Part shown: piece by piece, positions 13,790-43,006 of the stretch | Numbering within the stretch: position 1 is the first letter of the stretch | Layout: every line of letters begins with the position of its first letter | Sequence record: NZ_CP044080.1 | From: a plasmid | Length of the DNA: 64,000 nucleotides | Reading direction: 5' to 3' (one strand) | Notes under the pieces: generated by a model | Told to the model about the DNA's origin: nothing | The model's input: the letters and a program-made list of their open reading frames with translations, nothing else | Databases searched by the model: none | Program-made: the position numbers and the translations under genes

Positions 13790-14377
13790 CTAGCGAGATC
13801 GCTCCAGCCGGCGCAGCATGTCGTGCGACCAGGCATAGGCCGGATCAAGGCTCAGGGCGTGGCGAAAGGCGGCGCGGGCCTCGTTCCGGCGCCCCAGCGC
13901 GGTCAGGCACATGCCCAGGTTGTGGTGCACGACCGCCCGCCTGGCATCCAGCGCCAGCGCACGGCGGTAAAGCGGCAGCGCCTTGGCAGGGCGGTCCATG
14001 TCGTAAAGGACGTTCGCGGCCTCGTTCCATGCGGGTTCATAGGCCGGGTCAAGTCCCAGTGCCACGTCGAAGGCCGCCAAGGCCGGCACGAACCGCCGCA
14101 GGTCGCGTAGCACCAGGCCCAGATTGCCCCAGTTCATCGCACGGCGCGGCCCCAGCCGGATGGCGGCGGCAAAGGCCTCGTGCGCCTCGGCCATCCGGCC
14201 CTGGGTCCACAGCACCGAACCCAGGCCACGCCAAGCGTCCTCGCCCGCCAGTTGCGCACGAAATGCCGCCTCGGCCGCGTCCAGCCGGCCCGCCCGCCAC
14301 AGATCGAAGGCGTGGGCCAGGCCGGGGTCGGCGGGGCGCCAGCCCTCCCACGCCGTGGGCGGTCCGTCAGCCGGCAA
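13790..14377 (-). CDS. Tetratricopeptide-repeat protein (last gene of the RiPP-like operon)
   Basis: Several 34-residue TPR-like units (W/LG/Y spacing, AxxAFxxALxLDPxY). 11-nt overlap with the upstream gene. Confidence 0.6.
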   Translation of the reverse strand: MPADGPPTAWEGWRPADPGLAHAFDLWRAGRLDAAEAAFRAQLAGEDAWRGLGSVLWTQGRMAEAHEAFAAAIRLGPRRAMNWGNLGLVLRDLRRFVPALAAFDVALGLDPAYEPAWNEAANVLYDMDRPAKALPLYRRALALDARRAVVHHNLGMCLTALGRRNEARAAFRHALSLDPAYAWSHDMLRRLERSR

Positions 14378-15005
14378 CGTGAAAGCACCCCGCCAGCATC
14401 ACCAGCCGTTCCCCGGCGGCCAGCGGCGGACGCAGATGCGCATGGCGCGAACCGAAGATCGCCGCCGCGCGATTGCTGCGCGCGGTCAGCCGCATCGCCA
14501 GTCCCGTGGCCGAGTTGTCGCCCCGAAAGATGAACAGCTGCATGCCGGGGCTGGGCTCGACCCCGTCGGGCCAGGCCGCGTCCAGATAGGTCAGCAGGTT
14601 GTATTTGCAGCTGTCGGCCTTGTCGCAATGCTCGCCCATGTGTTCGGAGGGGCCGGTGTATCGCGTGTAGCAGGTCGCGCTCCAGGACGGGGCGAGGCGT
14701 TCGCCGGTCAGCGCGTGCAGCCAGGCCACGACGGCGTCCGAGGACAGATAGCCCCGCGCGACGGGGCCCAGATGGGCGCGGCGGTTGTCCTGCGCGATCT
14801 CGCCCCGGTCGCGGCTGCCGGTCAGCTGCCAGCTTTCGGCATCAAGCTGACCCAGCGCTTCCTCCAGCAGGGCGCGGTGCAAGGCGGCGTTCAGCGCAGG
14901 GGGCCCAAGGACCGTGACGCCGGTGGCGCGGAAGGCGTCGACATGCGCCGGCCCAAGCGCGGAGGGGTCGGCGAAGACGGCGTCGGCAATGGGGGCGTCA
15001 GGCAT
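14367..15005 (-). CDS. Hypothetical protein, possibly a 2OG-Fe(II)-oxygenase-like (HxD...H) tailoring enzyme
   Basis: Candidate facial-triad residues (GEHCD...FGSRHAH). Translationally coupled to its neighbours by 8-nt and 11-nt overlaps. Confidence 0.4.
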   Translation of the reverse strand: MPDAPIADAVFADPSALGPAHVDAFRATGVTVLGPPALNAALHRALLEEALGQLDAESWQLTGSRDRGEIAQDNRRAHLGPVARGYLSSDAVVAWLHALTGERLAPSWSATCYTRYTGPSEHMGEHCDKADSCKYNLLTYLDAAWPDGVEPSPGMQLFIFRGDNSATGLAMRLTARSNRAAAIFGSRHAHLRPPLAAGERLVMLAGCFHVAG

Positions 15006-16194
15006 GGGCGGTCTCCTTCGGCAGGGCCTCGACGGCTTGGCGCAGGTCCTCCATCAGCCCGGCGCCGGCCGGGGTGGCGGTGCCGTTGTCGGACAGCACC
15101 CGCCAGCCCTGGCGCGTGTTCGCCGCCTGCCGGGCCAGCACCCCGCGCGCGAAGCGGGCCGAGGCCCCGCCCCGCGCCGCAAGCCGGTCATACCAGGCGC
15201 AGACGTTCAGAAAGGCGTGCACGCCCAGCAGCAGCCCGTCCAGCGGGCGCTTGTCGCTGCGCCAGGGGCTGTCAAAGCCCGCTGCCTCGGCTGCAGGGTC
15301 GGTCGCAACCACCAGCGGATCGACGGCCTTGGCCCAATGCATCCGCACATGGCTGGATTCGTGGCACAGGAGGTCGCCCACCGTTTCCGGCGCCCCCGCC
15401 GTCATCATGATCGTGCCGCAGAGCGATTGCGGCGAATGGCTGCGCTCATAGCCGCGCGGCGCCAGCAGGACCAGGCCCCGGACATGCCGCGCCAGCGTCT
15501 CGGCCGCCGCGGGCCAGACCTGCGCCATCAGCGCAAGGCCAGTCGCGATGCGGGCCATGGCGGCATGCAGCACCTCGCCCTCTGCCAGAGCGAAGGGCGC
15601 CAAGGCCGCCCGCACCGCAGGGTCGGCGTTCAGCACGTCAAGGCCGCCGATCCGGGGGGCTGCGTGGAACAGGGCGTTCCCGGTTCCGGGCGGTGCGGGG
15701 ATGCCGGTCGCGAAGGTTGCCGATACGCCGTCGTCGCGCATCAGCCCGACGCGGCCGCCGCTTTGGCGCAGGGCGATGACCCGCGCGCCGGGGGCGTGCA
15801 GGACGATGCGCAGATGCGGCAGCATCAGATCCGCCGCCAGATCGCCGCCGGTGAACACAAGGGTCAGATCCTCGATATCCGGGGCGCCGATCAGGTGGCG
15901 GGCCAGGGCTGCGCGTCGCTCGGCCAGGCTGCGCGGGTCCTTGACCCCGTCCGGCGCCGTGACCCCGGTATCGAGCGAGGCGAGCGGATGGCCAAAGACC
16001 CGCAGCCGCGCCGGTTCGGGGCAGGCCTTCAGGGCGCGCGCGACCTCGACCGCGCAGGGCTCGTCCGCGCCCTCCAGCATGTCCGCCGCGCGGCGCGCGC
16101 AATCCCGGGCCCAGAGCGCCTGCAGGTGGTCGATGCCCTGGCCGGGGGGGCCTGGAAAGACCAGCCCTGTCAGGTCGGATACCGGGCCGGTCAT
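14998..16194 (-). CDS. HExxH-motif peptide-modification protein (family that co-occurs with FxsB-type radical SAM/SPASM maturases; alphaKG-HExxH beta-hydroxylase-like)
   Basis: Single HExxH (LLCHESSHVRMHW). About 400 aa. ATGA overlap with the radical SAM gene stop. Confidence 0.65.
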   Translation of the reverse strand: MTGPVSDLTGLVFPGPPGQGIDHLQALWARDCARRAADMLEGADEPCAVEVARALKACPEPARLRVFGHPLASLDTGVTAPDGVKDPRSLAERRAALARHLIGAPDIEDLTLVFTGGDLAADLMLPHLRIVLHAPGARVIALRQSGGRVGLMRDDGVSATFATGIPAPPGTGNALFHAAPRIGGLDVLNADPAVRAALAPFALAEGEVLHAAMARIATGLALMAQVWPAAAETLARHVRGLVLLAPRGYERSHSPQSLCGTIMMTAGAPETVGDLLCHESSHVRMHWAKAVDPLVVATDPAAEAAGFDSPWRSDKRPLDGLLLGVHAFLNVCAWYDRLAARGGASARFARGVLARQAANTRQGWRVLSDNGTATPAGAGLMEDLRQAVEALPKETAHA

Positions 16195-17759
16195 GCCGCC
16201 ACCCGCGCGGGCGTGAAATCGTGCTGGAACCGCACGCCGCCCCCTTCGAAATAGGAACAGCGGTTCAGGTGGTCGAACGCCGCCGCGTCAAAGGACAGAA
16301 GATGCATCAGCCAGGGATAAAGCGTCTTGTAGAACGCACATTCCGGCGTCTTGTGGCGCACGGTCCCATAGCTTTCCCAGGCCTGCGCCGAACAGCCCGA
16401 CTGGCAGAGCTGCCGATAGGGGCAGACCGCACAATCGTCGAAATCCGCCGGCCGGCGGGACCGGATCTCGGCGATGCGGGCAGAGCGGCGGGCCGGCTGG
16501 GACAGGCTCTCGATGCCGTCGTCGAAGATGTTGCCCAGCCGCAAGCCCGGCGATTGCGTGGCCCGCCCGCAGGGATAGATATCGCCGTTCGCCGCGACGG
16601 ATTGAAAGCTGTCGCCCGCCCCGCACTCGGCCCGCATGCAGCGGGTGCGGCGCTGCTTGCTGGTCAGAAAGCGGCACATGGAATGGATGTTATCCTCAAG
16701 CAGCAGGTCGCGCCGTGCGATGACGCCGCGCAGCAGGGCCTGGAAGAACGCGATGATCTGGTCCTGGGTCAGCCCCACCCGGTCCCAGTTCTTGCGCGCG
16801 TCGCCCAGATAGGCGACCGGGTTCACCCGAAAGCCGTGGATCGCGTGCCCCAGCATAAAGGACACCAGCCCGTCGGGATCGCCGATGTTCATGCGGTTCA
16901 GCACCACGAGGCCCCCGAAGGGGACGCCGCCCTGCTGAAGCAGCTCGATCCCACGCATCAGCGCCGGAAAGCTGGCCTTGCCGTTCACCATGGGCCGCCC
17001 GCTGTTCTGCGCCTGCGCGCCCCCGTCCAGCGAGATGCCCACGCGGATGTCATTGTCGCGCAGCCAGTCCACGCGTTCGGGCGTCAGCAGCGTGGCATTG
17101 GTCTGGATCGACAGGAACACCGTCCGCCCGCTGGCCCCCGGGTGGTTGCGGATATGATCCACCAGCCGCTGCATGATCGCGAATTTCAGGAACGGCTCGC
17201 CCCCGGCGAATTCGAATGCCAGCACCCGCGCCTCGGTCATGGCAAAGGCCAGGTCGACCGAACGCAAAGCGATGGTTTCGTCCATCGCGGGCATCTTCTG
17301 GTTCGCGCCCGCCAGGCAATAGGGACAGGCGAGATTGCATTTCTCGGTCAGCAAAAGCTCGACCAGGTGGCCCTCGTCATAGTTCGGCCCGTCGGCGAAC
17401 ATCCCGGCATCGACCGCGCGGGCACCGTTCAGCGCGATCAGCCCGCGCCGCCACAGATGCGCCGCGAAATCCAGCGCGGCGTCGGCGCTGTCCATCCGGG
17501 CCGCCAGGGCGCCGAAATCCCGCCCGTCCATCCAGCGGTGCAACGCGGCCTCGTCCGGGTTCAGGAACGCCCATGAGGCGCTTTCGGGATGGATCGCCAG
17601 GGTCTCGCCCTGGACCCGGACCTGATCGACGCCCTCGGTCGACAGTCTTGTGTCAGGACGCAGCGTGACCTGGCCGAAGGGGGCATAGGTCTTGCCCTGG
17701 GTCGCGCCCAGCCAAGGCGCCTCGGCCGCGTCGCGAGAGGGACAAAAGACATAGCGCAT
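16191..17759 (-). CDS. Radical SAM/SPASM-domain peptide maturase (FxsB / three-residue-cyclophane-forming-enzyme-like) with a ~130-aa N-terminal extension
   Basis: CxxxCxxC (CNLACPYC), a G-rich SAM motif (FEFAGGEPF) and a C-terminal SPASM Cys cluster (CGAGDSFQ...YPCG...CAVCPYRQLCQSGCSAQ). Start MRYVF at 17757-17759 overlaps the stop of the upstream gene by 1 nt. Confidence 0.85.
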   Translation of the reverse strand: MRYVFCPSRDAAEAPWLGATQGKTYAPFGQVTLRPDTRLSTEGVDQVRVQGETLAIHPESASWAFLNPDEAALHRWMDGRDFGALAARMDSADAALDFAAHLWRRGLIALNGARAVDAGMFADGPNYDEGHLVELLLTEKCNLACPYCLAGANQKMPAMDETIALRSVDLAFAMTEARVLAFEFAGGEPFLKFAIMQRLVDHIRNHPGASGRTVFLSIQTNATLLTPERVDWLRDNDIRVGISLDGGAQAQNSGRPMVNGKASFPALMRGIELLQQGGVPFGGLVVLNRMNIGDPDGLVSFMLGHAIHGFRVNPVAYLGDARKNWDRVGLTQDQIIAFFQALLRGVIARRDLLLEDNIHSMCRFLTSKQRRTRCMRAECGAGDSFQSVAANGDIYPCGRATQSPGLRLGNIFDDGIESLSQPARRSARIAEIRSRRPADFDDCAVCPYRQLCQSGCSAQAWESYGTVRHKTPECAFYKTLYPWLMHLLSFDAAAFDHLNRCSYFEGGGVRFQHDFTPARVAA

Positions 17760-18622
17760 CAGGAGCTTCCTTGTAGAACAGGGACGAGGATGCGAACGCG
17801 GTCGCCATCGTGCCGAGGGCCGGGATGCCATCCGTCGGGGCCCAGGGCGATGTCGCGGCGCATCCGCGCCTCGATCCCGGCCAAAAGCGCGGGGGCCGTC
17901 CGCGCCAGCCCCCCGGCCAGACGCCGCGCGCGGGCAAGGCTGGTGGCGCAGGTCCAGGAACAGGGGAAATGTTCGGTCAGGACGGGACCGGCGTAGCGGG
18001 CAAAGACGTTCAACTCCCACGGCATCTCTGCCCCCTCCGGCCCCAGCCGCATCCGGCCCAGATCGCCCGCGCAATGCGTCACTGCCTGCGGCCAGTCGCG
18101 CAGGAACGCCTCGATGCAGCAGGGCGGATATCCCAGCGCAAGGCCCATGACCCGGTCCCAGCCCCGCGCCTCGGCCAGCCACAGCAGCCAGGCCAACGAC
18201 GCTGAGGCCGAGACGGCGACCGCCCGCCATTCCCCCGCCGCGCCGCTTGCCGGCACCCGCGCCGCGGCAAGGTTCGCATAGCCCCCCAGGCCCGCGTCCC
18301 GCTGGGGCAGGAAGGCCCAGGCCGAGGGCATGGCGGTCAGCGACCGCCGCCGCGCCCAGTCGCAGACGCCGGCGATCCAGGGCTCGGGCCCGTGCAGCAG
18401 GACTGCCGGCCGCAAGCCGGCGGCCAGCATCTCAAGCTCAGCCACGGTGCCGATGGGGGCGCCGGGCCCGGCCGCGGGGATGGCCGGGCCCGGCAGCTCG
18501 TCCTCGGGCCCATCCGGGATCGCGGCCAGCAGCGCGTCGGGCAGTCCCAGGGCCTGGGCACGGGCGCGCACCGACAGTCCCCCTTCGCCGGACCTTGGCG
18601 AGGGCGCTTTGGCGCGGTGCAT
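17759..18622 (-). CDS. Conserved hypothetical Cys-rich protein in the RiPP-like operon (candidate partner/peptidase/scaffold)
   Basis: Open frame between the precursor stop (7-nt gap) and the radical SAM start (1-nt overlap). Motifs GYPPCCIEAF, HCAGD and FPCSWTCATS. Confidence 0.5.
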   Translation of the reverse strand: MHRAKAPSPRSGEGGLSVRARAQALGLPDALLAAIPDGPEDELPGPAIPAAGPGAPIGTVAELEMLAAGLRPAVLLHGPEPWIAGVCDWARRRSLTAMPSAWAFLPQRDAGLGGYANLAAARVPASGAAGEWRAVAVSASASLAWLLWLAEARGWDRVMGLALGYPPCCIEAFLRDWPQAVTHCAGDLGRMRLGPEGAEMPWELNVFARYAGPVLTEHFPCSWTCATSLARARRLAGGLARTAPALLAGIEARMRRDIALGPDGWHPGPRHDGDRVRILVPVLQGSS

Positions 18623-18629
18623 GGGCGGC

Positions 18630-19256
18630 CTAGCGCCGGATGCGGGTGCCGCGCACCGTCATGTCAAAGGCCCCGGTCGCGGGCACATCGACGCGCAACC
18701 CGCCCGGCAGCGTGACCCGGGTCAGATCGCGGCCGGGGTTGAGGACCGTCGAGGGGTCGAAATTGGCATGCCCGCCCCCGTTCACGAAGCCCGGCGGCCC
18801 CGAGTTCACATGCGAGCCCGCAATCGAGCCGGGGTCGAAATTCGCGTGCCCGCCGCCGTTCACGAAACCGGGTGGGCCGGAATTCACATGCGTTCCCGTG
18901 CCCCCCGAGGGGTCGAAGTTCGCATGGCCCCCGCCGTTCACGAAGCCCGGAGGCCCCGAGTTGACATGCACCCCGGCAATCGAGCCGGGATCGAAGTTCG
19001 CGTGCCCGCCGCCGTTCACGAAACCGGGTGGGCCCGAATTGACATGCGCCCCCGAGATGCCGCCCGGATTGCGGATCGCGCCGATGGCGCTGGCCACCTC
19101 GGTGCGCAGGATCGCGGTCAGGTCCTTGAGCGAAAGATCCGCCAGCTTGGTCTCGGGCGCAAGCGACCTGCCTTGGGATGCAGGGCGGTCGGCCTCGGGA
19201 TCACTGCCTGGGGTCGTCGATTGGCCTTCCTTGGAACCCTTGGGTTCTTGTGCCAT
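18630..19256 (-). CDS. Putative multi-core RiPP precursor: ~68-aa leader, four tandem 26-aa core repeats (HVNSGPPGFVNGGGHANFDP) and a ~40-aa C-terminal tail
   Basis: GGAGA Shine-Dalgarno 8 nt upstream of the ATG. Four ~78-bp DNA repeats (18750-19052) differ mainly at synonymous positions, so the peptide repeat is conserved. Immediately upstream of the maturase genes. Confidence 0.6.
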   Translation of the reverse strand: MAQEPKGSKEGQSTTPGSDPEADRPASQGRSLAPETKLADLSLKDLTAILRTEVASAIGAIRNPGGISGAHVNSGPPGFVNGGGHANFDPGSIAGVHVNSGPPGFVNGGGHANFDPSGGTGTHVNSGPPGFVNGGGHANFDPGSIAGSHVNSGPPGFVNGGGHANFDPSTVLNPGRDLTRVTLPGGLRVDVPATGAFDMTVRGTRIRR

Positions 19257-19416: not shown

Positions 19417-20616
19417 CTATTGCCCGGCCGGGATCAGGGACGGATCGGCGGCCAGCGTCGTTCCGGGACTGGGCTGGGGCTCGGCGCCCTCTTCGAGTAC
19501 GCGGGCCGGCGCCGTCACCACGGCGCCCAGCGTGTGCAGCGTGCCGGCCGCGACCATGAAGATGCTGCCTCCAGAGCCGTTGTCGCTGGTCAGCCGCTGG
19601 CCCTGTGCCAGCTTGCGCCCGATCAGCCGCACGATGTCGGGGCTTTCGGCAAAGCGCGAATGGTGCGTGCCGCCCGGCACGTCGATCTGGCTCAGGTCGA
19701 TGGCGTCGATCCCCGCCTGCAGCAGGGCGGTGCGATAGGGTTCGCGCGAGGGGTCGATTTCGCCCACGCGCTCGACCCGACCCGCGATCAGCCGCGACAG
19801 ACCCAGTGCGCGGTCGTCCTTGGCCATGAAGATGGTGAAATGCGGGCGCGGGGCGGCCATTTCAATGAACTGGCGGGAAAACACCTCGATGTCGATATCG
19901 GGCGAGGCGAGGACCACGTCACGGATCTTGGGATTCACGGGGCCGCTGCGGATGCTCATCTGGCGCAGCGATTCCATGGTCAGGAAGGCGCCCATGGAAT
20001 GGGCCAGGATGGTGATCTGCGTGACCGAGGAGTCGTCCGCCAGGATTCGCAGCGACTGTTCCAGCGCGGTGCGGGAATAAAGCGCGCTTTCGCGGTCATA
20101 GTTATAGCCGACGGGGCTTCCACGCGACGGCCAGGTGAACAGGATCGGTGTCGCCGCCACATCGCCGTCATGCGCGATCTGGGCCAGCCGATAGACCGCC
20201 TCGCCATAGGTCGTGTTGAACCCGTGAACGAACAGCAGCACATGGCCGCCGACGCGGTGCTGGCGCATCCAGGCCCGGCCCTGCGCCACCGAACTGATGT
20301 CCTGCACCTGGCGGACGTGGAAATCGGTCGTCGGCTGGGGCGGACGGGTGCGCGGCCACTGGATCGTGCCACTGGGGCGGTTCGCGGGGATCCCCACCTT
20401 GACCGCGTCGAGATGCAACTGCGGGTCGCGCCGGCCGCCGTAACGCTCGGCCCGGTCGGTCAACATCTGGCGGTTGGTGGCCACCAGAACATCGACCGCA
20501 GGGCCGGTCTCGACCGGGGCCACGACCGGCTGCATCAGCCCGGTCGGCCGGGGCGAGCAGGCCGACAGCATTCCCGTCAGCAGGACCAGAAGGATCGCCA
20601 GCCGCACCGGCATCAA
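19417..20616 (-). CDS. Alpha/beta-hydrolase-fold lipoprotein (DUF900-type serine hydrolase)
   Basis: Lipobox (LLTGMLSAC), nucleophile elbow (LAHSMGAF) and the alpha/beta hydrolase order. Confidence 0.65.
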   Translation of the reverse strand: MMPVRLAILLVLLTGMLSACSPRPTGLMQPVVAPVETGPAVDVLVATNRQMLTDRAERYGGRRDPQLHLDAVKVGIPANRPSGTIQWPRTRPPQPTTDFHVRQVQDISSVAQGRAWMRQHRVGGHVLLFVHGFNTTYGEAVYRLAQIAHDGDVAATPILFTWPSRGSPVGYNYDRESALYSRTALEQSLRILADDSSVTQITILAHSMGAFLTMESLRQMSIRSGPVNPKIRDVVLASPDIDIEVFSRQFIEMAAPRPHFTIFMAKDDRALGLSRLIAGRVERVGEIDPSREPYRTALLQAGIDAIDLSQIDVPGGTHHSRFAESPDIVRLIGRKLAQGQRLTSDNGSGGSIFMVAAGTLHTLGAVVTAPARVLEEGAEPQPSPGTTLAADPSLIPAGQ

Positions 20617-23160: not shown

Positions 23161-24129
23161 GGAAGCCGCCAGATGAAGCCACTGACCCGAACCGCCCTGG
23201 TCTCTGCCGCCGCCCTTGCCGCCGCCCCGGCGCTGGCGGTCAGCGGCGAGGACGTCCTGCAAAACGCCTGCGCCGCCTGCCACGTCAAGCACGAAGACGG
23301 CCGGTGGGAACGCATCGACGCCGTCCGCAAGACGCCCGAGGGCTGGGACATGACGGTGACGCGGATGATGCGCAATCACGGCGTCGCGCTGGAACCGCAA
23401 GAGCGGGCGGCTGTGGTCCGCTACCTGTCCGACACCCGCGGTCTGACGCCCGAAGAAGCCGAGGGGCGCCGCTATATCCTGGAACGCGAACCAGTGGCCT
23501 TCGACGAGGGTCCCGATACGCTGATGACCCAAACCTGCGGCCGATGCCATTCCTATGCCCGCGTCGCCCTGCAACGCCGCACGCCCGAGGATTGGGCGCA
23601 TCTGGTGAACTTCCACCTGGGCCAGTTCCCGACGCTGGAATACCAGGCGCTGGCGCGGGATCGCGACTGGTGGGGCATCGCCCAGGCCGAGATCATTCCC
23701 TTCCTCGCCAAGACCTATCCGCTGGGCGAGGCGCCGCCCGCCTTTGCCGGCGACGCTTCGGGCGACTACGTCCTGGCTGGGCGCCAGCCGGGGCGTGGCG
23801 ACTATACCGGACGGCTGGCGCTGACGAAAGCGGGTGACGATTACGCCGTGACCATGACGCTGGACTTCGCCGACGGCAGCGCAAGCTACAAGGGCACCGG
23901 CCGCATCCTGGGCGCCGGCGAATGGCGCGCGACGCTGAGCGACGGCAAGACCGGGATCCGCCAGGTCCTTGTTTTTCACGACGGCCGCTTCGACGGGCGC
24001 TGGTACCACGCCGACAGCGACGTGATCGGCGGCAGACTGGCGGCGGTGACGATGCGGGGCTTTTTACGCCAGGCGACGCCGGGCCGAACCCGGAACGCCC
24101 GATGCAGACCAACAACGCGGGCAACCTGA
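23161..24129 (+). CDS. Diheme c-type cytochrome with signal peptide (QhpA-like alpha subunit of quinohemoprotein amine dehydrogenase; probably frameshifted near the 3' end)
   Basis: Signal peptide MKPLTRTALVSAAALAAAPALA. Two CxxCH motifs (CAACH, CGRCH) about 90 residues apart. The apparent authentic C-terminus continues in another frame to 24227. Confidence 0.55.
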   Translation, partial: GSRQMKPLTRTALVSAAALAAAPALAVSGEDVLQNACAACHVKHEDGRWERIDAVRKTPEGWDMTVTRMMRNHGVALEPQERAAVVRYLSDTRGLTPEEAEGRRYILEREPVAFDEGPDTLMTQTCGRCHSYARVALQRRTPEDWAHLVNFHLGQFPTLEYQALARDRDWWGIAQAEIIPFLAKTYPLGEAPPAFAGDASGDYVLAGRQPGRGDYTGRLALTKAGDDYAVTMTLDFADGSASYKGTGRILGAGEWRATLSDGKTGIRQVLVFHDGRFDGRWYHADSDVIGGRLAAVTMRGFLRQATPGRTRNARCRPTTRAT

Positions 24130-24204
24130 AGGTCATCGCCACCGTGGACACGGGTGGCGTGCCGCTGACCGCCGAGGCGCATCTTTACGCCACGGTTCAG
24201 CGCT

Positions 24205-25584
24205 TTGTCGACGCGCCGATCCGGTGACGCCATGGGAGCCCTGACCCTGATCCGCCACAATGCCCGCCGGGTCGATGTCGACGGCCATGCCATGCTGATG
24301 TATGTGCCGACGACCAGCCTGTTCGAGCTCGACGGCGTGGCGCGCGACGTCTATGACCTGTTCCGCAGCGCGCCCGCCGTAGACCCAGACCTGATGCGGG
24401 CGCGGCTGGGCCGGCACAGCCCGGACACGCTGGCCGACTGCCTGCACAGCTTCCTGGCGCTCGACATCCTGCGTGACGCCGATGCGGCGGATACCCCCCG
24501 CCCGATCACGAAGGTCGAGGGGATTCCGCTGTCCACGATCATCCTGAACGTGAACACCGGCTGCAACCTGGCCTGCACCTATTGCTACAAGGAGGACCTG
24601 ACCACCCCCGCCAAGGGCCAGAAGATGGGCTTTCACACGGCGCGCGCCAGTTTCGAGCTGCTGCCGAAGCAGGCCCATGCCCGCGACCGGGTGAACGTGG
24701 TGTTCTTTGGCGGCGAGCCGCTGTCGAACATGCCGCTGATCCGCGAAGTGGTGGCCTATGCCCTGCCGCGCGCGGCGGAGCTGGGCAAGACGGTCGATTT
24801 CTCGCTGACCACCAATGCGACTCTGCTAATGCCCGACCTGGTCGACTGGTTCGACGCGCATCGCTTCGCGCTGACGGTCAGCATGGACGGGCCCAAGGTG
24901 CTGCACGACCAGAACCGCAAGACGGTGGGCGGCAAGGGCACCTATGACCTGGTGGCGCGCAATGTGCGCATGCTGCTCGCGCGCTATCGTTCGCGACCGG
25001 TCGGCGTACGGGTGACGCTGACGCGCGGCGTGACCGACGTCATCGGCATCCACGACCACCTGAAGAACGATCTCGGCTTCCACGAGGTCGGCTTCGGCCC
25101 GGCGACCTCGGGGCCGATCGCGGTATTCAACCTGGATCAGCAGGCGCTGCAAGCCGCCTTCGAGGACATGAAGACCCTGGGCCGACGCTATGTCGAGGCC
25201 GCCTGCCGGGGCGAGAATATCGGTTTTTCCAACATGCACCAGTTGCTGACCGACATCGCCCAAGGCACCAAGAAGGCCGTGCCCTGCGGCGCCGGGCTGG
25301 GAATGCTTGCCGTGGACAAGGAGGGCGATCTGCACCTCTGCCACCGCTTCGTCGGCTCGAACCAGCCGACCTATGGCAATGTCGCGCAGGGCATCGACGT
25401 GCCGGGGTCGTCGTATCGCGCCTTGGCCCGGCTATTCCCTGTTGCTGCCGACTTTAGCACAGGCGGGCCGCGACCTCTCAAAAAGCTGCGCCTTGGCGGC
25501 CCGGCCGGTGCGACGTCGCGAAGCCCTTGCGAATACGACAGTTTTGCGACGGATCGCGGCGATGGACGCCCGAGACGAACCTGA
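24205..25584 (+). CDS. Radical SAM protein, anSME/QhpD-like; the distal SPASM half appears degenerate
   Basis: CxxxCxxC (CNLACTYC), GGEP motif and the start of a SPASM domain (PCGAGLG...GDLHLCHRF). No further Cys cluster follows in any frame. Alternative start MGALT at 24232. Confidence 0.6.
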   Translation: MSTRRSGDAMGALTLIRHNARRVDVDGHAMLMYVPTTSLFELDGVARDVYDLFRSAPAVDPDLMRARLGRHSPDTLADCLHSFLALDILRDADAADTPRPITKVEGIPLSTIILNVNTGCNLACTYCYKEDLTTPAKGQKMGFHTARASFELLPKQAHARDRVNVVFFGGEPLSNMPLIREVVAYALPRAAELGKTVDFSLTTNATLLMPDLVDWFDAHRFALTVSMDGPKVLHDQNRKTVGGKGTYDLVARNVRMLLARYRSRPVGVRVTLTRGVTDVIGIHDHLKNDLGFHEVGFGPATSGPIAVFNLDQQALQAAFEDMKTLGRRYVEAACRGENIGFSNMHQLLTDIAQGTKKAVPCGAGLGMLAVDKEGDLHLCHRFVGSNQPTYGNVAQGIDVPGSSYRALARLFPVAADFSTGGPRPLKKLRLGGPAGATSRSPCEYDSFATDRGDGRPRRT

Positions 25585-25646
25585 CATTTCCGGCCAGATT
25601 TCCGGCCCCTGTCCCAGACTCGCCAGAAGGGTCCAGGAGGGGTGAG

Positions 25647-27050
25647 ATGACCGAATACAGACTGCTGATCGATGGAAAGCTGGTGCACGGCGACATGACC
25701 ATGGCGGTCGTTAACCCCGCCACCGAACAGGTGCTGGCCCGGGCGCCGCGCGCGTCCAGGGGGCAGCTCGACACCGCGGTGGCCGCGGCCAAGGCAGCCT
25801 TTCCGGCTTGGGCCGCACGCCCGATCAATGATCGGCGCGCGCTGATCCTGCGGATCGCCGACCAGCTTGAGGCACGGGCCGAGGAATTCGCCCGGCTGCT
25901 GACGCAGGAACAGGGCAAGCCCCTGCCCGAGGCGCAGGCCGAGATTGCCTACACCTGCGCCTTCATCCGCCACCTTGCGGGCTACGACCTGCCTGTGAAG
26001 GTGATCGAGGACAATGACAACCGGCTTGTCCGGCAGTTCCGCAAGCCGCTGGGGGTGGTGGGGGCGATCATCCCGTGGAACTTCCCGGTGCTGATTGTGG
26101 CCTTCAAGCTGCCGCTGGCACTGCTTGCCGGCAATACGATGGTGGTGAAGCCCGCACCGACCACGCCGCTGACCACGCTGAAGCTGGGCGAGATCATCGC
26201 CGAGATCCTGCCGCCGGGCGTGGTCAACATCGTCACCGACCAGAACGACCTGGGCCCGGCGCTGACGGCACACCCCGACGTTGCCAAGATCAGCTTCACC
26301 GGCTCGACCGCGACGGGGCAAAAGATCATGGCCAGCGCGGCATCAACCATCAAGCGGCTGACGCTGGAACTGGGCGGCAACGACGCGGCCATCGTGTTGC
26401 CGGGCGCCGATCCGGCCAAGGTTGCGCCGGGACTGTTCGCGGGCGCCTTCATGAATGCCGGACAGGTCTGCCTGGCGATCAAGCGCGCCTATGTCCACGG
26501 CTCGATCTATGACGAGGTCTGCGCCCGGCTGGCCGAACTGGCCGAAGCCGCCGTGGTCGGCGACGGCCTGCAGCAGGGCACCACCATCGGCCCGCTGCAA
26601 AACCGCATGCAGTTCGACAAGGTCAAGGCTCTGCTCGACTCGGCCCGCGCTGACGGTCGCATCATCGCGGGTGGCACACTGCCCGACGGGCCAGGCTATT
26701 TCATCCGCCCCACCATCGTCGCAGACGTCGCGGACGGCCATCGCATCGTGGACGAGGAACAGTTCGGTCCGATCCTGCCGGTGATCCGCTTCGACGATGT
26801 CGAGGCGGCCGTCGCCAGCGCCAACGGGCTGGACCTTGGCCTTGGCGGCTCGGTCTGGGGCGAGGACCATGACCTGGCCCGGAGCGTGGCCGAGCGCATC
26901 GACAGCGGCACGGTCTGGATCAACAAGCACCTGGATTTCGGACCGAACATCCCGTTCGGGGGTGCCAAGCAATCAGGGCTTGGCGTCGAGTTCGCCGAGG
27001 AGGGCCTGGCCGAGTTCACCCAGGTCCGCATCGTCAACGAGGCGCGCTGA
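25647..27050 (+). CDS. NAD(P)-dependent aldehyde dehydrogenase
   Basis: ALDH motifs (ELGGNDAAIV catalytic Glu; FMNAGQVCLAIKR catalytic Cys). AGGAGG-like RBS before the ATG at 25647. Confidence 0.85.
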   Translation: MTEYRLLIDGKLVHGDMTMAVVNPATEQVLARAPRASRGQLDTAVAAAKAAFPAWAARPINDRRALILRIADQLEARAEEFARLLTQEQGKPLPEAQAEIAYTCAFIRHLAGYDLPVKVIEDNDNRLVRQFRKPLGVVGAIIPWNFPVLIVAFKLPLALLAGNTMVVKPAPTTPLTTLKLGEIIAEILPPGVVNIVTDQNDLGPALTAHPDVAKISFTGSTATGQKIMASAASTIKRLTLELGGNDAAIVLPGADPAKVAPGLFAGAFMNAGQVCLAIKRAYVHGSIYDEVCARLAELAEAAVVGDGLQQGTTIGPLQNRMQFDKVKALLDSARADGRIIAGGTLPDGPGYFIRPTIVADVADGHRIVDEEQFGPILPVIRFDDVEAAVASANGLDLGLGGSVWGEDHDLARSVAERIDSGTVWINKHLDFGPNIPFGGAKQSGLGVEFAEEGLAEFTQVRIVNEAR

Positions 27051-27683: not shown

Positions 27684-28793
27684 ATGGGTCCGTTCCCGCA
27701 CGATGCCCCGAAGGCCACGATCAGCCCGGCAAACCCCGCCGGCACCGACGGCTTCGAATTCGTCGAATTCGCCCATCCCAACTCTGCGGTTCTGGACCGG
27801 GTCTTTCGCCAGATGGGCTTTGTTCCGGTCGCCCGGCACCGGACCAAGGACATCACGCTGTATCGCCAAGGCGACATCAACTATCTGCTGAACGCCGACC
27901 CGGACAGCCATGCGGCCGGCTTCGTCGGGGAACACGGGCCCTGCGCGCCGGCCATGGCCTGGCGGGTGGTCGATGCGCAGGTCGCGTTGAAACGCGCGCT
28001 GGACCTGGGCGCCACCGAATACACCGGCCCCGGCAAATCCATTGGGGCGCCCGCCGTCTACGGCATCGGCGGCTCGCTTCTGTATTTCATCGACAAATAT
28101 GGCGCCGAAGGCAGTGCCTATGAGGCCGATTACGCCTGGCTGGACGAGGTGAACCCCCGCCCCGAAGGCTTTGGCTTCTACTACCTCGACCACCTGACGC
28201 ACAATGTCATCCGCGGCAACATGGACACCTGGTACAGGTTCTACCACGACACGTTCAACTTCCGCGAGATCAAGTATTTCGATATCAGGGGCAGGCAGAC
28301 CGGCCTGGTCAGCCGGGCGCTGACCTCGCCCGACGGCAAGATCCGCATCCCGATCAACGAATCCACCGACGACCGCAGCCAGATCGAGGAGTACCTGCGC
28401 AGGTACAAGGGCGAGGGCATCCAGCACATCGCCATCGCAACCGAGGACATCTATGCCGGCACCGACCGTATCGCCGAAGCCGGCATGACGTTCATGCCCG
28501 GCCCGCCCGACACCTATTACGAAATGTCGCACAAGCGGGTGAGGGACCATCAGGAACCCGTCGAGCGCATGAGGAAGCACGGCATCCTGATCGACGGCGA
28601 AGGTGTGGTCGGCGGCGGCGAAACCCGCATCCTGCTGCAGATCTTCTCGAAGACGGTGATCGGCCCGATCTTCTTCGAGTTCATCCAGCGCAAGGGCGAC
28701 GATGGCTTCGGCGAGGGCAACTTCCGCGCGCTTTTCGAATCGATCGAGGAGGACCAGATCCGTCGCGGGGTCCTGAAGGCCACCACTGCGTGA
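27684..28793 (+). CDS. hppD: 4-hydroxyphenylpyruvate dioxygenase
   Basis: HPPD hallmarks (GFEFVEFAHP; HIAIATEDIY; IFFEFIQRKGDDGFGEGNFRALFESIE). AGGAGG RBS at 27673-27678. Confidence 0.85.
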   Translation: MGPFPHDAPKATISPANPAGTDGFEFVEFAHPNSAVLDRVFRQMGFVPVARHRTKDITLYRQGDINYLLNADPDSHAAGFVGEHGPCAPAMAWRVVDAQVALKRALDLGATEYTGPGKSIGAPAVYGIGGSLLYFIDKYGAEGSAYEADYAWLDEVNPRPEGFGFYYLDHLTHNVIRGNMDTWYRFYHDTFNFREIKYFDIRGRQTGLVSRALTSPDGKIRIPINESTDDRSQIEEYLRRYKGEGIQHIAIATEDIYAGTDRIAEAGMTFMPGPPDTYYEMSHKRVRDHQEPVERMRKHGILIDGEGVVGGGETRILLQIFSKTVIGPIFFEFIQRKGDDGFGEGNFRALFESIEEDQIRRGVLKATTA

Positions 28794-28865
28794 TACGTGT
28801 AGAGCCCAAGAAGCCTTTATAGGCGCCCTTCAGCGCATCAGCAATCAGCGGTCGGTATCGGACGC

Positions 28866-30161
28866 TCAGCACGTATCGCGCAGATGGCACTGCAACTGAT
28901 CGGCGAACCAGATGTTTCGCATGGGGTTCATACCCCATGATTGCATGTAGAAATGCGCGATATGGGACGGAATCCGGGTCCCGTCGCTGACCACAAGTTG
29001 CGCGGCCAGGGCACCCCCGGGGCTAAGCTGGTCCGCATAGGCAAGGCTGTCGCGCAGATAATCCATATCGCTGTCGGAGCGGCCATCGGGAAGGTTTCCC
29101 TTGCCGATCTGCGCCCGCTGGCAGGCTTCGCTAAGCGGCTTGCCACCTCGAACATAGGGAAGAAAGGCGATATCTGGCCGAGGTTCTCGTTTGAGGCAGG
29201 CGTTGACATAGGAAAGGCTGTTGGTGATGTAGCCGAATTGAGGCCCTTCCGCTCCTGAACCGTTGATGGTGCGGGTCGCATTCCAGAGGTGCCTGCTGCG
29301 ATCACGAAACAGCGCGGGGTCCTCTGCAACAAGCGCATAAGGATAATCGATCACGATTTCCGATATGGTGACAGAGTCCGGGCTGTCGGTCTGCAGCTTG
29401 GAAAAGGCAGTTAGGACGTCGACAAGATCCACGCTTGTGCCGCCGCCGCGTCTGGGCAGGCCTCGCAGTCGCCAGTTTGGAAGATTGACCACAAGCCGCA
29501 ATTGCGGAGGGGTGCCGTTATTTGCCTTGGTCACCAACTCGCGCATTTCGACCAGGTAAGAATGAACCGTCCGTACCGTCGTGTCGATATCGAAGCTTTT
29601 CTTGACCTTCAAACAACCGGCCTGCTTCGTTGATCCTTCGATCAAACGCAGGAAAGGGCCATCGACGTTCAGCGCAAGGATAGAAATCCCGGCGTTGGAC
29701 AGGCGCTGCAAGGATTGGTCGAACTCTTGCCGAGCCGCATGCCGACCCCGTTCCTCGGGCGAGAAACCCTGCCTGCACGCATCACCAGACAGGCCCGCCC
29801 CCGCCTCGTAACTGATCGAAAAGCCAAGATCGCGCTGCAGCCGGGCCAAGGCATCAAGATCGGCCTGCCGCAGGTAAGTCTCCTCTGGGCGGGAAATATA
29901 GGTCCCGTTCTCATTCCTGCCAAACCGCAGTTCGCTTTTCATCAGGAACGTGCCATTCAGTAGGATTTCCTGGACCCCAGCCTCATGCAGGTTCCTCCAT
30001 ACCGGTACTGTGTCGGCGCCAAACAGCGTCTGATTGTCAAGCGCGCGCGGACTCGGGCCAAACACGATGTCGGCTTCCGCCCGCGCTGGCACTGCCGACA
30101 GCACCGCCAGTGACAGGGAAAGAGCCAGCGACTTTGCCCAAGTCCGCACGGGAGCCATCAT
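28866..30161 (-). CDS. Secreted hypothetical protein (signal peptide) in a lower-GC polysaccharide-related island
   Basis: Signal peptide MMAPVRTWAKSLALSLSLAVLSAVPARA. 4-nt overlap with the upstream glycosyltransferase. GC is lower than the genome background. Confidence 0.5.
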   Translation of the reverse strand: MMAPVRTWAKSLALSLSLAVLSAVPARAEADIVFGPSPRALDNQTLFGADTVPVWRNLHEAGVQEILLNGTFLMKSELRFGRNENGTYISRPEETYLRQADLDALARLQRDLGFSISYEAGAGLSGDACRQGFSPEERGRHAARQEFDQSLQRLSNAGISILALNVDGPFLRLIEGSTKQAGCLKVKKSFDIDTTVRTVHSYLVEMRELVTKANNGTPPQLRLVVNLPNWRLRGLPRRGGGTSVDLVDVLTAFSKLQTDSPDSVTISEIVIDYPYALVAEDPALFRDRSRHLWNATRTINGSGAEGPQFGYITNSLSYVNACLKREPRPDIAFLPYVRGGKPLSEACQRAQIGKGNLPDGRSDSDMDYLRDSLAYADQLSPGGALAAQLVVSDGTRIPSHIAHFYMQSWGMNPMRNIWFADQLQCHLRDTC

Positions 30162-32443
30162 GAAATGGGCTCATCTTGCTTGCCGCAATGACGCGACAGC
30201 ACAGTCAGGTACAGGTCCTCATATTTCATGCTTGGTTCCAGCATAGCCTTTTCGGCCCATTCGTTCCAAGCGTTGATGAACAGTTCGTGCCGATAGGATT
30301 GAGCCAAGGCTTTTTCCCGGAGCGTCCGGAGCCAGAGGTTAAAGGACGCGGGGTTCGCTCCCAAGGCGATATGTGCGTCTTTCCCGCGTCGTGCGGTATT
30401 GTCCCAGGACGGCATCACCCCCCGGATGGTATTGGGCGGAAGAGCCCTTGAATATTTGTCCGAGACGGACGTCTGGGCAATCCTGTTGTAATCGTAAACA
30501 AGGCCCGAGAACTCGCCCTGCATCCCGCGCTCCAGAACGTTCCCCTTGGGTCCGCCAAACAGATAGTCGTCCCCTTGGACCAGACCATGCGGAGGCATTT
30601 CGATCCAGAAATCGAAGCAGTCCTGGCGGTGATCCTTGTCGCGGTCCAGATGGAACAGGACGGCACCGATTTCGACCTCGCCTACGCCATTGCGCCTCCA
30701 GGCCTGCCGAAGTCTCTCGACCGACGCCGCGGCATCGGGCAAATCGCTCGGCCGATAGATGACGAACCGCGGCCGGACGCCATCGGGGCGCTGATATCTT
30801 TCGTCGCGCATATAGGGCGCGCAATCGTCGGCAAAGGCGGTTTCAAATCCTTCCAGGTAGCTTTGCTCCAGAAGAACCGTGCCCGACATGCCATCCCAGT
30901 TCCGGCGCCAGCTTTCGTTCGCCCAGCACAGATAGAAGGGAAAGTCGATATCAGGACGCTTCAACAGATTATCCAGCGGCTGTTCCAATATCCGGCGGCC
31001 GTTGAACCAGTAGTGATAGACGCAAAAGGCATCGATCCCCGCCTTCCGCGCAAGCTCTGCCTGACTGCCCATCACCTCGGGCAGGCGCAGGTCGTAAAAT
31101 CCCAGATCCAAGGGAAGCATGGGTTGGGTGTGCCCTTCGAAGGAAGGCTTCGCAGTCACCACATTCCGCCACTCGGTGAAACCCTTGCCCCACCAGCGGT
31201 CATTTTCCTTGGTGGGATGGAATTGAGGCAGGTAGAAAGCACTGACATAGCGCGGCTTTCTGGACGACGTGGTTTCGTGGCCAGCAGTCTCCAACTCGGA
31301 CGTCTGGACGATCCTGTTGCCGAAAGCCTTGCACAGCGGCCCCATAGCCCGTTCAAAGCCATGAGCCACCGTCCCGTCGACCTGGCCATATTCGATGTCA
31401 AAATCGTTGGCGTTCAGCTGCAGCGCCTTGATCATGGCGATCATGTCGGATTTCAGCCAGTACATCGAGCCTGCGGGAAAGCCGCAATTCGCCCGGTCCA
31501 GCTCGATTTCCACCCTGTGCAGGATCTGCCGGGTTATTTCATAATTCGAACCCCACCATTTCGTGTCTTCATAGTGCTGTCCGTCGGACACCCAAACGGA
31601 CGCCCTGTCGTCGCACATGAAATTGTCGAGCCGATCGGGAAGGCTTTCTGGAGACAACAAGCCTTCGATCAGGTGCCGCCTCCAGATATCGCCGTCCAGT
31701 CGGTGGGGCGACTTCTTGGTGTGGATCTTGCAGATCGCCTTGTATTTTGACAGAAGCCCAGCATTCACCAAGCTGACGAAGGGCAGAATATCGCGGCCAC
31801 GGTTTTCCATCTGAACCACCACGGCATCGGGGAACGCTTCGGACACAAGGCGCTGACATTCGTTGGTAGCCTTTCCCCGATAGGTCAGGGTGACATACAG
31901 GTCAAAGTCGATGGTCAGGCTTTTCAGGATCTGTTCAAATTCGGGCCATAGCTCCGGATAATAGACGTGAACTACAACGGCATAGGGATTGACCGCTTCC
32001 TTTTTCAGCGCACCGATGTTCGGCGTCTTTTCAGGCGGTATCCGCTCGACCTCTGGCAGATCCTTGTAGAGTCGGTTCTCAAATCGGCCGGTCTTTGCAT
32101 AATGCAGAAGGGGAGAAATCCCCGCCGCGCGCACATCGGCATTGTACTTCAAGTAGGCGAACGGGGAAAAGTCCGGATTTGGCCGGAAACCACTGCTCTC
32201 GCCATAAACCGCGTAATGCCTGAGCGGGAACTTCTTGAACAGAGGATGAATATGGGGATAAGCGCCAAGGTAATATGTCTTGTCGAACAGATTTTCCGCC
32301 TTCGCGGCGCGGATCAGGGCCTTCTCCGAACTGCGAAGATTGAAGATCCGGAGAAATCTGAAAGCCCGTTGAGTGGTGGAAGCGGTTTGCTGGACCGAAC
32401 TCTTATACATTCTTGCAGTCCTGACTTCAAATTTTGTCGACAA
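30158..32443 (-). CDS. Two-domain glycosyltransferase: rhamnan-synthesis RgpF-like N-terminus fused to a WbsX-like (AFYLPQFHP) C-terminus
   Basis: N-terminal region has RgpF-type features (VVHVYYPELWPEF). C-terminal half opens with the WbsX signature (YVSAFYLPQFHPTKENDRWWGKGFTEW). 761 aa. Confidence 0.6.
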   Translation of the reverse strand: MSTKFEVRTARMYKSSVQQTASTTQRAFRFLRIFNLRSSEKALIRAAKAENLFDKTYYLGAYPHIHPLFKKFPLRHYAVYGESSGFRPNPDFSPFAYLKYNADVRAAGISPLLHYAKTGRFENRLYKDLPEVERIPPEKTPNIGALKKEAVNPYAVVVHVYYPELWPEFEQILKSLTIDFDLYVTLTYRGKATNECQRLVSEAFPDAVVVQMENRGRDILPFVSLVNAGLLSKYKAICKIHTKKSPHRLDGDIWRRHLIEGLLSPESLPDRLDNFMCDDRASVWVSDGQHYEDTKWWGSNYEITRQILHRVEIELDRANCGFPAGSMYWLKSDMIAMIKALQLNANDFDIEYGQVDGTVAHGFERAMGPLCKAFGNRIVQTSELETAGHETTSSRKPRYVSAFYLPQFHPTKENDRWWGKGFTEWRNVVTAKPSFEGHTQPMLPLDLGFYDLRLPEVMGSQAELARKAGIDAFCVYHYWFNGRRILEQPLDNLLKRPDIDFPFYLCWANESWRRNWDGMSGTVLLEQSYLEGFETAFADDCAPYMRDERYQRPDGVRPRFVIYRPSDLPDAAASVERLRQAWRRNGVGEVEIGAVLFHLDRDKDHRQDCFDFWIEMPPHGLVQGDDYLFGGPKGNVLERGMQGEFSGLVYDYNRIAQTSVSDKYSRALPPNTIRGVMPSWDNTARRGKDAHIALGANPASFNLWLRTLREKALAQSYRHELFINAWNEWAEKAMLEPSMKYEDLYLTVLSRHCGKQDEPIS

Positions 32444-33401
32444 GGCGGCGCGACAGTTGGACCCAGTACGCCGGAGTCAGTGAATCTCTGAAGACCACGT
32501 TATTTTCCTTCGGAAAAGCGCCGATTTCCACTCCACCACTCCTATCCTGGAACTGCCTGTTCAGGGGGCCGAATACATCTTTGAGCCGTTGATATTCGTC
32601 CTTGGTGAAGATGGTTGTTTTCATCCCGTCCTTGCCAATGTCGTCCAGCGCAACCCTTGCTGTTTCCAGAAGCCATGACTTGAACGGCCTGCCTCCAAGG
32701 ACATGCGCCACAACCCATGTTCCCAGCGGATCGGGAGAGACGTTGCTGTTTCCGGCAGGCAGGTCTTTCAGCGCACCGGCAAACTGGGGTAAGCCACATT
32801 CCGTCATCATGCGGCCGATGATGCCGTGACTTTCGCGCGCCTCGCGCTCGTATGAGAAAAAGGAAATTTCTTCTGGCGAGAAGGCAGTTTCCAGATAGTC
32901 TTTCAGATCGTTGTAATCCAGAAACAAGCCCGTGGCCATCTTGGAGGAAGCCGCGCCTTCAAAGAAGTTTCCCCAATGAATATTCACGCCGCTCTTGACG
33001 ACCTGCAGATATATGGATTGCAGGAATGAAATCTGGTTCCGCAGAAAGCAGACGACCTTTACTTCGTCAAAGTCAGACAGCATGTCTCGCAGTTTTCGCA
33101 TGTCGACCCGCGAATTCGGGTTTCCGCGCGAGAGTTCCTCGGTGCTGATCAGAACCGTGCGATCCGATTTCGCGTGGTCCCTTGCCAGCTTGGCCCATGC
33201 CGCTTGCGCGGTGGTGTCCAGATGGTAGGCTTCGGGCAGCTTTATCCAGTCCATTACCAAACCGTGCTGCCCACTCGCCTTTCCTATTTCCGGGAAGACA
33301 AGACCTTTTTCGGAAAGAAAACTCCTGTTCAATGCAAAGGTGTCTTGGATCGTCGTTGTGCCGGTTTTATGGGTACCGATATGCAGGATCACCTTGGACA
33401 T
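32427..33401 (-). CDS. Sulfotransferase-family protein (putative PAPS-dependent)
   Basis: N-terminal 5'-phosphosulfate-binding-like loop (ILHIGTHKTGTTTIQ). Operon with the glycosyltransferase via a 17-nt overlap. Start at MSKVILH. Confidence 0.5.
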   Translation of the reverse strand: MSKVILHIGTHKTGTTTIQDTFALNRSFLSEKGLVFPEIGKASGQHGLVMDWIKLPEAYHLDTTAQAAWAKLARDHAKSDRTVLISTEELSRGNPNSRVDMRKLRDMLSDFDEVKVVCFLRNQISFLQSIYLQVVKSGVNIHWGNFFEGAASSKMATGLFLDYNDLKDYLETAFSPEEISFFSYEREARESHGIIGRMMTECGLPQFAGALKDLPAGNSNVSPDPLGTWVVAHVLGGRPFKSWLLETARVALDDIGKDGMKTTIFTKDEYQRLKDVFGPLNRQFQDRSGGVEIGAFPKENNVVFRDSLTPAYWVQLSRRLVDKI

Positions 33402-33834: not shown

Positions 33835-33862
33835 AAAGGCTGGCCCCGAAAGGCCAGCCTGC
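33835..33862 (-). terminator. Candidate stem-loop terminator downstream of terC
   Basis: Inverted repeat AGGCTGGCC-ccgaa-GGCCAGCCT about 30 nt past the terC stop. The minus-strand trailing sequence is only partly T-rich (TTTGCTTTCT). Confidence 0.3.
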
Positions 33863-33891
33863 AGCACCCGCGATCAAATCGGAACGAACGA

Positions 33892-42955: not shown

Positions 42956-43006
42956 GGCGGCCCCCTTGTTGGCAGATGCGTTCCCCTGACAAGGCCGGGC
43001 CGGGCG

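Follow-up and report, generated by a model that had tools for sequence, protein, structure and literature searches.

Does a peptide cassette on a Paracoccus yeei plasmid recruit two structurally unrelated iron-dependent oxygenases to tailor the same precursor? The question arises from sequence record NZ_CP044080.1, of which a stretch of 64,000 nucleotides (the window) was analyzed. Its open reading frames (ORFs) include six tightly packed ones on the minus strand, arranged in the order multi-core precursor, GYPxCC protein, radical S-adenosylmethionine (rSAM)/SPASM enzyme, HExxH protein, double-stranded β-helix (DSBH) protein and tetratricopeptide repeat (TPR) protein. A preliminary description had assigned the HExxH protein to a class of peptide β-hydroxylases and had read the HxD...H motif of the following gene as the mark of a second Fe(II)/2-oxoglutarate (2OG) oxygenase. 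Both ORFs lie at exactly the coordinates given there, and translation shows both motifs to be real. As set out below, both assignments hold, and we put the probability that two structurally unrelated Fe(II)/2OG oxygenases tailor the repeats of the precursor encoded at 18630-19256 at roughly 70%, judging from sequence comparison and structure prediction.

The HExxH protein (398 residues; 14998-16194, minus strand) contains DLLCHESSHVRMHW, with HESSH at residues 278-282 (nucleotides 15349-15363). It matches TIGR04267 (IPR026337), the NCBIfam model of the ‘aKG-HExxH-type peptide beta-hydroxylase’ (aKG, α-ketoglutarate), with a score of 89.6 bits, the curated cutoff being 40 bits (E = 2.3e-25), residues 218-383 spanning profile positions 3-176 of 177; a Pfam scan gave no match. 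Among PDB sequences, a single-sequence search found 22nu_A (1.6e-9), and a profile of 12 orthologues found 22nu_A over near full length (9.4e-14) and ChlH (8s5f) over the catalytic core only (4.9e-10). Since H278, E279 and H282 are invariant in these 12 orthologues, whose identity to the window protein is only 27-41%, the HExxH motif is more than a chance occurrence. Equally invariant are R251, R284, D292, the block S309-P-W-R312-x-D314-x-R316-P317, H326 and N330; R312 and R316 align with the WReDLRP block of ChlH, and aKG-HExxH enzymes need positively charged aKG-binding residues (PMC12614342). With this score and its homology to ChlH and 22nu, membership of the protein in the aKG-HExxH β-hydroxylase family is well supported by sequence, making the gene a new member of a known family; hydroxylation activity would be expected from that membership. 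The family consists of Fe/aKG oxygenases with a zincin-like fold, and all characterized members are of this kind (PMC12636437, PMC13060819, PMC12707348). ChlH is reported to β-hydroxylate His and Asp after cyclophane formation. PflC/PosC combine Gln hydroxylation with oxidative backbone cleavage (PMC12636437); PesO hydroxylates Pro, where earlier members act on His, Asp, Phe and Gln in RiPPs, peptides made by the ribosome and modified after translation (PMC13060819); BipH is the aKG-HExxH hydroxylase of biphenomycin biosynthesis (PMC12707348). Some HExxH clusters pair the enzyme with an MNIO hydroxylase, an oxidative enzyme that depends on multinuclear non-heme iron (PMC12636437, PMC13060819).

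The next gene (14367-15005, minus strand), ‘hypothetical’ in RefSeq, encodes 212 residues that include MGEHCDKADSC and IFGSRHAHLRPP. The HCD of the first segment (H126-x-D128) lies at 14622-14630; H190 belongs to FGSRHAHLR, with HLR at 14430-14438. The protein alone has no Pfam (E ≤ 0.1) or NCBIfam match, and neither the single sequence (phmmer) nor a 20-sequence profile found a PDB sequence. Weak matches to PF13640 (2OG-FeII_Oxy_3) and PF13661 appear in 11 of 20 orthologues (best 1.8e-5), and a word-indexed search gave 24 database relatives, one with a precomputed PF13640 domain. The family is small: a profile search of 1.84 billion representatives returned 163 clusters (50% identity) at E ≤ 1e-3. 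Across 110 relatives, down to ~20% identity, H126, D128 and H190 are the sole invariant columns, and the HxD...H motif is therefore more than chance. Only a profile of these 110 sequences reached solved 2OG oxygenases by sequence, namely PolD (5.8e-11), HalD (3.7e-9), the P. putida prolyl 4-hydroxylase (P4H; 2.6e-8), HalB (5.5e-8) and, at ~1e-5, PHD2 and BesD; HxD and the distal His align with those of the solved enzymes (HKD/HLD of PolD and P. putida P4H).

Structure prediction, which had been proposed as the check on this gene, yielded a model with a pLDDT (predicted local distance difference test) of 91.4 and a DSBH fold, so that 14367-15005 falls within the DSBH superfamily and not outside the cupin/DSBH folds. 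All 60 of the 60 listed matches in a structure search belong to the DSBH 2OG oxygenase superfamily, and Foldseek concurs; the neighbors include BesD/Hal, PolD, PHD2, P. putida P4H, SnoK, Tpa1 and OGFOD1, the best being HalB. Despite this best match we rejected a BesD/Hal-type halogenase (HxG/A), because the motif is HCD and D128 is invariant, which makes the ligand set hydroxylase-type. Assignment to the MicC-type peptide-cleaving DSBH enzymes was likewise discarded, as the KanJ/KdoO-like sub-fold and obligatory Gly of that type were not found. On the conserved columns and the modelled fold, the 212-residue protein is very likely a (putative) DSBH-fold Fe(II)/2OG-type oxygenase.

The two genes are bound together both by their junction and by their distribution. 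They overlap by 8 nt, with AAGGAG 9 nt 5′ of the DSBH ATG, and are translationally coupled; upstream, the rSAM stop and the HExxH start share an ATGA overlap, and downstream the DSBH and TPR genes overlap by 11 nt (sequence reading). A genome scan restricted to one genome per species found 13 loci: a P. yeei plasmid, seven in Nitrosospira/Nitrosovibrio, one each in metagenome-assembled genomes (MAGs) of Nitrospira, Sphingomonadaceae, Acidobacteria and Bryobacterales, and one in Marinobacter. The six-gene order is identical at 11 of them and the other two end inside the cassette; at most loci the HExxH stop and DSBH start form a 4-nt ATGA overlap. When flanking ORFs were clustered, no other gene, including any protease or transporter, was conserved around the cassette.

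Searching metagenomes with the HExxH alignment as seed brought up 73 loci. The six-gene order recurs at the close ones: HExxH relatives with E < 1e-86 have DSBH and TPR genes, or a DSBH-TPR fusion, behind them, with one exception (L032). Distant relatives retain the rSAM gene and one or two GYPxCC genes but lack DSBH and TPR, from which it follows that the DSBH/TPR pair is an addition specific to one clade within a broader rSAM/HExxH/GYPxCC scheme. The DSBH gene itself was found in rSAM peptide cassettes wherever flanking DNA was long enough, some short contigs showing no rSAM gene. Remote DSBH relatives, too, directly follow rSAM peptide maturases: a GrrM/OscB-like rSAM enzyme with a 51-aa ORF (L096), a series of rSAM, HExxH, DSBH and PF13640-TPR fusion (L097), and a contig with a 52-aa ORF and an rSAM/SPASM gene (P0074). 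An additional PF13640 oxygenase gene in L018, L038 and L097 brings the number of stacked oxygenase genes to as many as three and makes oxygenase stacking a theme of the group. Collectively, the oxygenases are obligatorily linked to each other, to the rSAM/SPASM maturase, to the TPR partner and to the multi-core precursor.

The exceptional locus among the close relatives (L032, 1-8105) lacks DSBH and TPR and holds two tandem HExxH genes, an unknown 469-aa ORF and a carbamoyltransferase gene; its contig ends before the precursor.

The gene for the TPR protein (195 residues; 13790-14377, minus strand; TPR matches in Pfam) follows the DSBH gene at all the cassette loci scanned (genomes and close metagenome loci). 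Its repeat is generic and consensus-like. Ten representatives of the DSBH family are single-chain DSBH-TPR fusions whose TPR part resembles the window TPR protein (E 1e-28 to 1e-43), and in P0064 a single chain of 1070 residues comprises both a GYPxCC and a DSBH domain. These fusions, together with the remote relatives beside rSAM genes, argue for peptides as the substrates of the DSBH family and for a docking role of the TPR protein, which on this sequence evidence probably holds the peptide for the DSBH oxygenase.

Both oxygenases presumably act on the 208-residue precursor encoded at 18630-19256 (minus strand), which consists of a leader, four copies of HVNSGPPGFVNGGGHANFDP with variable spacers, and a conserved C-terminal follower, VTLPDGG.V.IPA.GPVD..VRGF.I.R. 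The 20-residue core is identical in Alpha-, Beta- and Gammaproteobacteria and in Nitrospira (window and loci L001-L031) and is the same in every repeat at almost every locus, even though identity among the enzymes has fallen to 35-65%. Comparison of 38 copies of the core, taken from 10 loci, shows no variation at any of the 40 first and second codon positions and variation at all 20 third positions, which demonstrates strong purifying selection on every core residue. Each repeat contains H-V-N, F-V-N, H-A-N and F-D-P, all of them aromatic-X-X motifs, as well as S-G-P-P-G, three Asn and one Asp. Variant cores occur as HVNSGPPGFVNEPGHANFDP (L028), HANSGPTKHSNVPGHANFT (L038) and ...HSNVPGHADFT (L019); common to all of them are three [H/F]-x-[N/D] motifs, S-G-P and the last F, which are plausible sites of the cross-links and oxidations. 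Of the Pro and Asn/Asp residues, only the first Pro (of S-G-P) and the three N/D positions are constant in the DSBH-containing variants. A full-text literature search found no paper with the core peptide sequence, and literature on PasI, on TPR and prolyl hydroxylase in RiPPs, and on Nitrosospira RiPPs contained nothing on this system. Three metagenome loci (L076, L080 and L085) encode multi-core precursors of another family, built on NRVLNEVKNAESNAANTTAHSVYVSGVFEE repeats, beside two HExxH genes, two GYPxCC genes and one rSAM gene, without DSBH or TPR.

Between precursor and oxygenases lie two further genes. The GYPxCC protein (287 residues; 17759-18622, minus strand) is of unknown fold and carries invariant GYPxCC and HFPCxxxC motifs. 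The rSAM/SPASM peptide maturase (522 residues; 16191-17759, minus strand) contains PF04055 and PF13186 domains. Its raw ORF (16191-18230, 679 residues) runs into the upstream gene; translation truly begins with the ATG at 17759 (MRYVFCPS...), in agreement with the PGAP annotation and all orthologues. In PDB searches the enzyme matched CteB (5wgg; 4.9e-17) and ChlB (5.6e-8), with anSME also among the best relatives. The preliminary description had placed the HExxH protein in the company of ‘FxsB-type’ maturases. This label is not shown for the window enzyme, since all of its NCBIfam matches (DynA, PapB, anSME, HxsB and others) fall below cutoff, the best being DynA with 151 bits against 450, and FxsB (TIGR04269) is absent from the 25 best. 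We presume that the rSAM/SPASM enzyme acts as a cross-linker before the oxygenases. The stretch is 98% identical to three P. yeei plasmids, in which PGAP has these six genes with the same boundaries, named TPR protein, hypothetical, ‘HEXXH motif-containing putative peptide modification protein’, radical SAM protein, hypothetical and hypothetical.

From these components a pathway can be proposed. In each 20-mer, the rSAM/SPASM enzyme would first cross-link the three aromatic-X-Asn motifs, H-V-N, F-V-N and H-A-N. The aKG-HExxH enzyme would then β-hydroxylate His, Asn, Asp or Phe in or beside the rings, as ChlH does. Finally, the DSBH enzyme, docked on the peptide through its TPR partner, would add a second, different oxidation; the likeliest is a hydroxyl group on the S-G-P proline, which is conserved, or on Asn/Asp. 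We infer the order of the reactions, the hydroxylation outcome, the target residues and the use of 2OG by the DSBH enzyme through R192 (see below).

Several observations weigh against this reading. The window DSBH protein itself misses PF13640 and was therefore filed at superfamily level only; its gene represents an unnamed, uncharacterized clade of a known superfamily, and its closest structural neighbors (BesD/Hal and PolD) use free amino acids or nucleosides rather than peptides. The second Pro of G-P-P-G is lost in the variant core HANSGPTKHSNVPGHANFT, so that a collagen-like X-Pro-Gly rule is not strict. Relatives of both enzymes (PflC of the HExxH protein, MicC of the DSBH protein) cleave backbones oxidatively, and a +16 Da outcome is therefore not assured. 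Finally, the canonical 2OG-binding arginine is absent: the strand β-VIII position at which P4H, PHD2 and HalB bind the C5 carboxylate of 2OG corresponds to L201, and position 201 is hydrophobic in the family. A candidate replacement is R192, located two residues past the distal His (HLR) and present in 103 of 110 relatives. The seven relatives without R192 are exactly the seven with R201, and this mutually exclusive pattern suggests that R192 took over 2OG binding. The proposal rests on covariation, which may reflect a single evolutionary event if the seven form one clade.

Collagen prolyl 4-hydroxylase and AspH combine a TPR peptide-binding domain with a DSBH catalytic domain. The cassette resembles them in that TPR is coupled to DSBH (adjacent genes here, one chain in ten relatives) and in that the core offers G-P-P-G and Asn/Asp; it differs in its reversed domain order, DSBH then TPR, and the likeness is one at superfamily level only, a working analogy. 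Extended on this analogy, DSBH and TPR would be a bacterial, RiPP-dedicated counterpart of collagen prolyl 4-hydroxylase/AspH, an unrecognized clade with a relocated 2OG-Arg that hydroxylates the invariant Pro or Asn and, with the HExxH and rSAM enzymes, yields a poly-hydroxylated, triply cross-linked 20-mer, maybe released without a protease. This extended picture is tentative, and in its entirety we hold it to be doubtful.

Oxidative backbone cleavage is the main rival to tailoring by two hydroxylases. Here one of the oxygenases would hydroxylate a Cα and thereby break the backbone, excising the 20-mers, possibly as C-terminal amides, in the manner of PflC/PosC and MicC. The 3-7 cores that the precursors carry need release, but neither the cassette nor its surroundings contain a conserved protease or transporter. 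PflC/PosC cut oxidatively at a small residue (PMC12636437), MicC, the DSBH enzyme of a triceptide cluster, cuts at Gly (PMC12912966), and most cores are preceded by G and then a small residue (A, V, S, T or M). However, no flanking residue is invariant, position −2 being R or P in some repeats and the post-core residue G, S, V, A, K, R or D, and with Val or Ser at its site PflC carries out β-hydroxylation and not cleavage (PMC12636437). We therefore consider cleavage unlikely.

A different peptide oxidation by the DSBH enzyme, such as desaturation, epimerization or a further cross-link, is less probable still and would surprise us. 2OG oxygenases are chemically versatile, and the up to three stacked oxygenase genes in L018, L038 and L097 suggest diversified chemistry; an aKG-dioxygenase RiPP macrocyclization (Xia et al., JACS 2025) is listed among the references of PMC13060819. 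Nevertheless, hydroxylation is the default both for HxD-type enzymes and for the nearest peptide-modifying neighbors (PHD2, P. putida P4H, Tpa1 and OGFOD1), and no sequence feature indicates a different outcome.

It is very improbable that the DSBH enzyme serves a substrate other than the precursor, be it a free amino acid or small molecule, as for BesD/Hal/PolD, or a cellular protein, as for P. putida P4H acting on EF-Tu. Its best structural and sequence matches do belong to the free-lysine/ornithine halogenase/hydroxylase family and to PolD of a nucleoside pathway, but its presence in rSAM peptide cassettes, its translational coupling to the HExxH gene and its fusions to TPR and, in P0064, to the GYPxCC protein all speak for a peptide, and the cassette holds no nonribosomal peptide synthetase or ligase able to use a modified free amino acid. 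Least credible of all is that the HExxH protein is a hydrolytic zincin-type peptidase trimming the precursor: HExxH is the classic zincin motif, leaderless PflC showed some hydrolytic activity (PMC12636437) and the cassette is without a protease, but the TIGR04267 score far above cutoff, the SPWRxDxRP block common to ChlH and the fact that every characterized family member is an Fe/aKG oxygenase all count against it.

Tailoring of one core by both oxygenase types, the preferred reading, can be compared with characterized systems. Like ChlH/ChlBH, BpmH/BipH, PflC/PosC and PesO, the window HExxH protein falls in TIGR04267/IPR026337 with HExxH, SPWRxDxRP and conserved Arg residues, its gene lies directly after an rSAM/SPASM gene, and the precursor has aromatic-X-X motifs. 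It differs in being a stand-alone protein that is not fused to the rSAM enzyme; its identity to solved members is low, the alignment with ChlH covers the catalytic core only, and its substrate is a new, invariant 20-mer. The DSBH protein differs from P4H (4iw3), PHD2, Tpa1, OGFOD1, BesD and HalA-D in having a hydrophobic residue in place of the β-VIII Arg and R192 (HxR) instead, from the BesD/Hal halogenases in having HxD and not HxG/A, and from both prolyl hydroxylases and BesD/Hal in failing PF13640 and sitting in a RiPP cassette.

The preliminary description had called the presence of two hydroxylase types unusual. The pairing of DSBH and HExxH enzymes is indeed rare, but the claim was overstated, as a characterized precedent exists in biphenomycin, where BipG (a JmjC DSBH enzyme, Orn γ-hydroxylase) and BipH (aKG-HExxH β-hydroxylase) act on one core cross-linked by the rSAM enzyme BipD (PMC12707348). 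Common to the two systems are a RiPP core cross-linked (in the window, presumably) by an rSAM enzyme, a DSBH-type and an HExxH-type Fe/2OG enzyme, which address different residues in biphenomycin, and a TPR-annotated gene. They part in that BipG is JmjC-type, whereas the window DSBH protein is P4H/BesD-like with a putatively relocated 2OG-Arg; BipD is a B12-rSAM enzyme making a biaryl and the window enzyme is a SPASM protein; the TPR-annotated BipC proved to be an arginase, and the window core has no Arg; and the biphenomycin pathway works on one core of five residues and has a protease of its own. A further parallel is offered by MicC of the minviopeptin triceptide cluster, homologues of which co-occur with rSAM and aKG-HExxH genes (Guo et al., PMC12912966). 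In both cases a DSBH 2OG enzyme annotated ‘hypothetical’ resides in an rSAM RiPP cluster, of cyclophane type for MicC and presumably so in the window; MicC is KanJ/KdoO-like with a strictly required Gly, whereas the window protein is nearest to the BesD/Hal and prolyl-hydroxylase clade and its core lacks an invariant flanking Gly. As a model for the pair we rejected SmaO/SmaX, which convert Asp to aminomalonate, SmaX being an HD-domain enzyme and not an HExxH protein.

Additional observations concern the surroundings of the cassette. A promoter and terminator scan gave no signal above that of shuffled sequences. On the same strand, 160 nt upstream of the precursor, lies a gene for a DUF900 α/β hydrolase with a lipoprotein-like N-terminus (19417-20616, minus strand), which was rejected as the pathway protease because it is not conserved at other loci. 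About 4 kb from the cassette, the quinohemoprotein amine dehydrogenase operon (peaA, the maturation rSAM gene peaB, and qhpC; ~23208-26300, plus strand; mapped from an annotated plasmid) is another rSAM peptide-cross-linking system, a known one, carried by the same replicon. GC content is 0.55-0.60 at 28-34 kb (28001-34000) against ~0.68-0.71 elsewhere in the window, and AT skew reaches −0.33 at 44-46 kb (within 42001-46000); these anomalies possibly mark acquired DNA or genes with a strong strand bias. In six Nitrosospira-group loci only (L010, 10197-12239, and five of Nitrosospira/Nitrosovibrio), a 681-aa flavin amine oxidase gene directly follows the TPR gene; it could provide an additional tailoring step or reflect lineage synteny.

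The points of greatest interest in the cassette are the DSBH/TPR unit with its candidate relocated Arg, the missing protease and the frozen 20-mer. If tailoring by both enzymes is correct, the cassette would be a second, independent RiPP example recruiting both known Fe/2OG oxygenase architectures, and a gene that RefSeq calls ‘hypothetical’ and that Pfam and NCBIfam models do not recognize would gain a function. The DSBH family would constitute a new small clade devoted to peptides modified by rSAM enzymes and distinguished by a TPR docking module and an unusual way of binding 2OG. The cassette would also yield an uncharacterized peptide with all 20 residues frozen across distant phyla, from Paracoccus to ammonia- and nitrite-oxidizing bacteria, which would imply a precise, conserved target or ligand.

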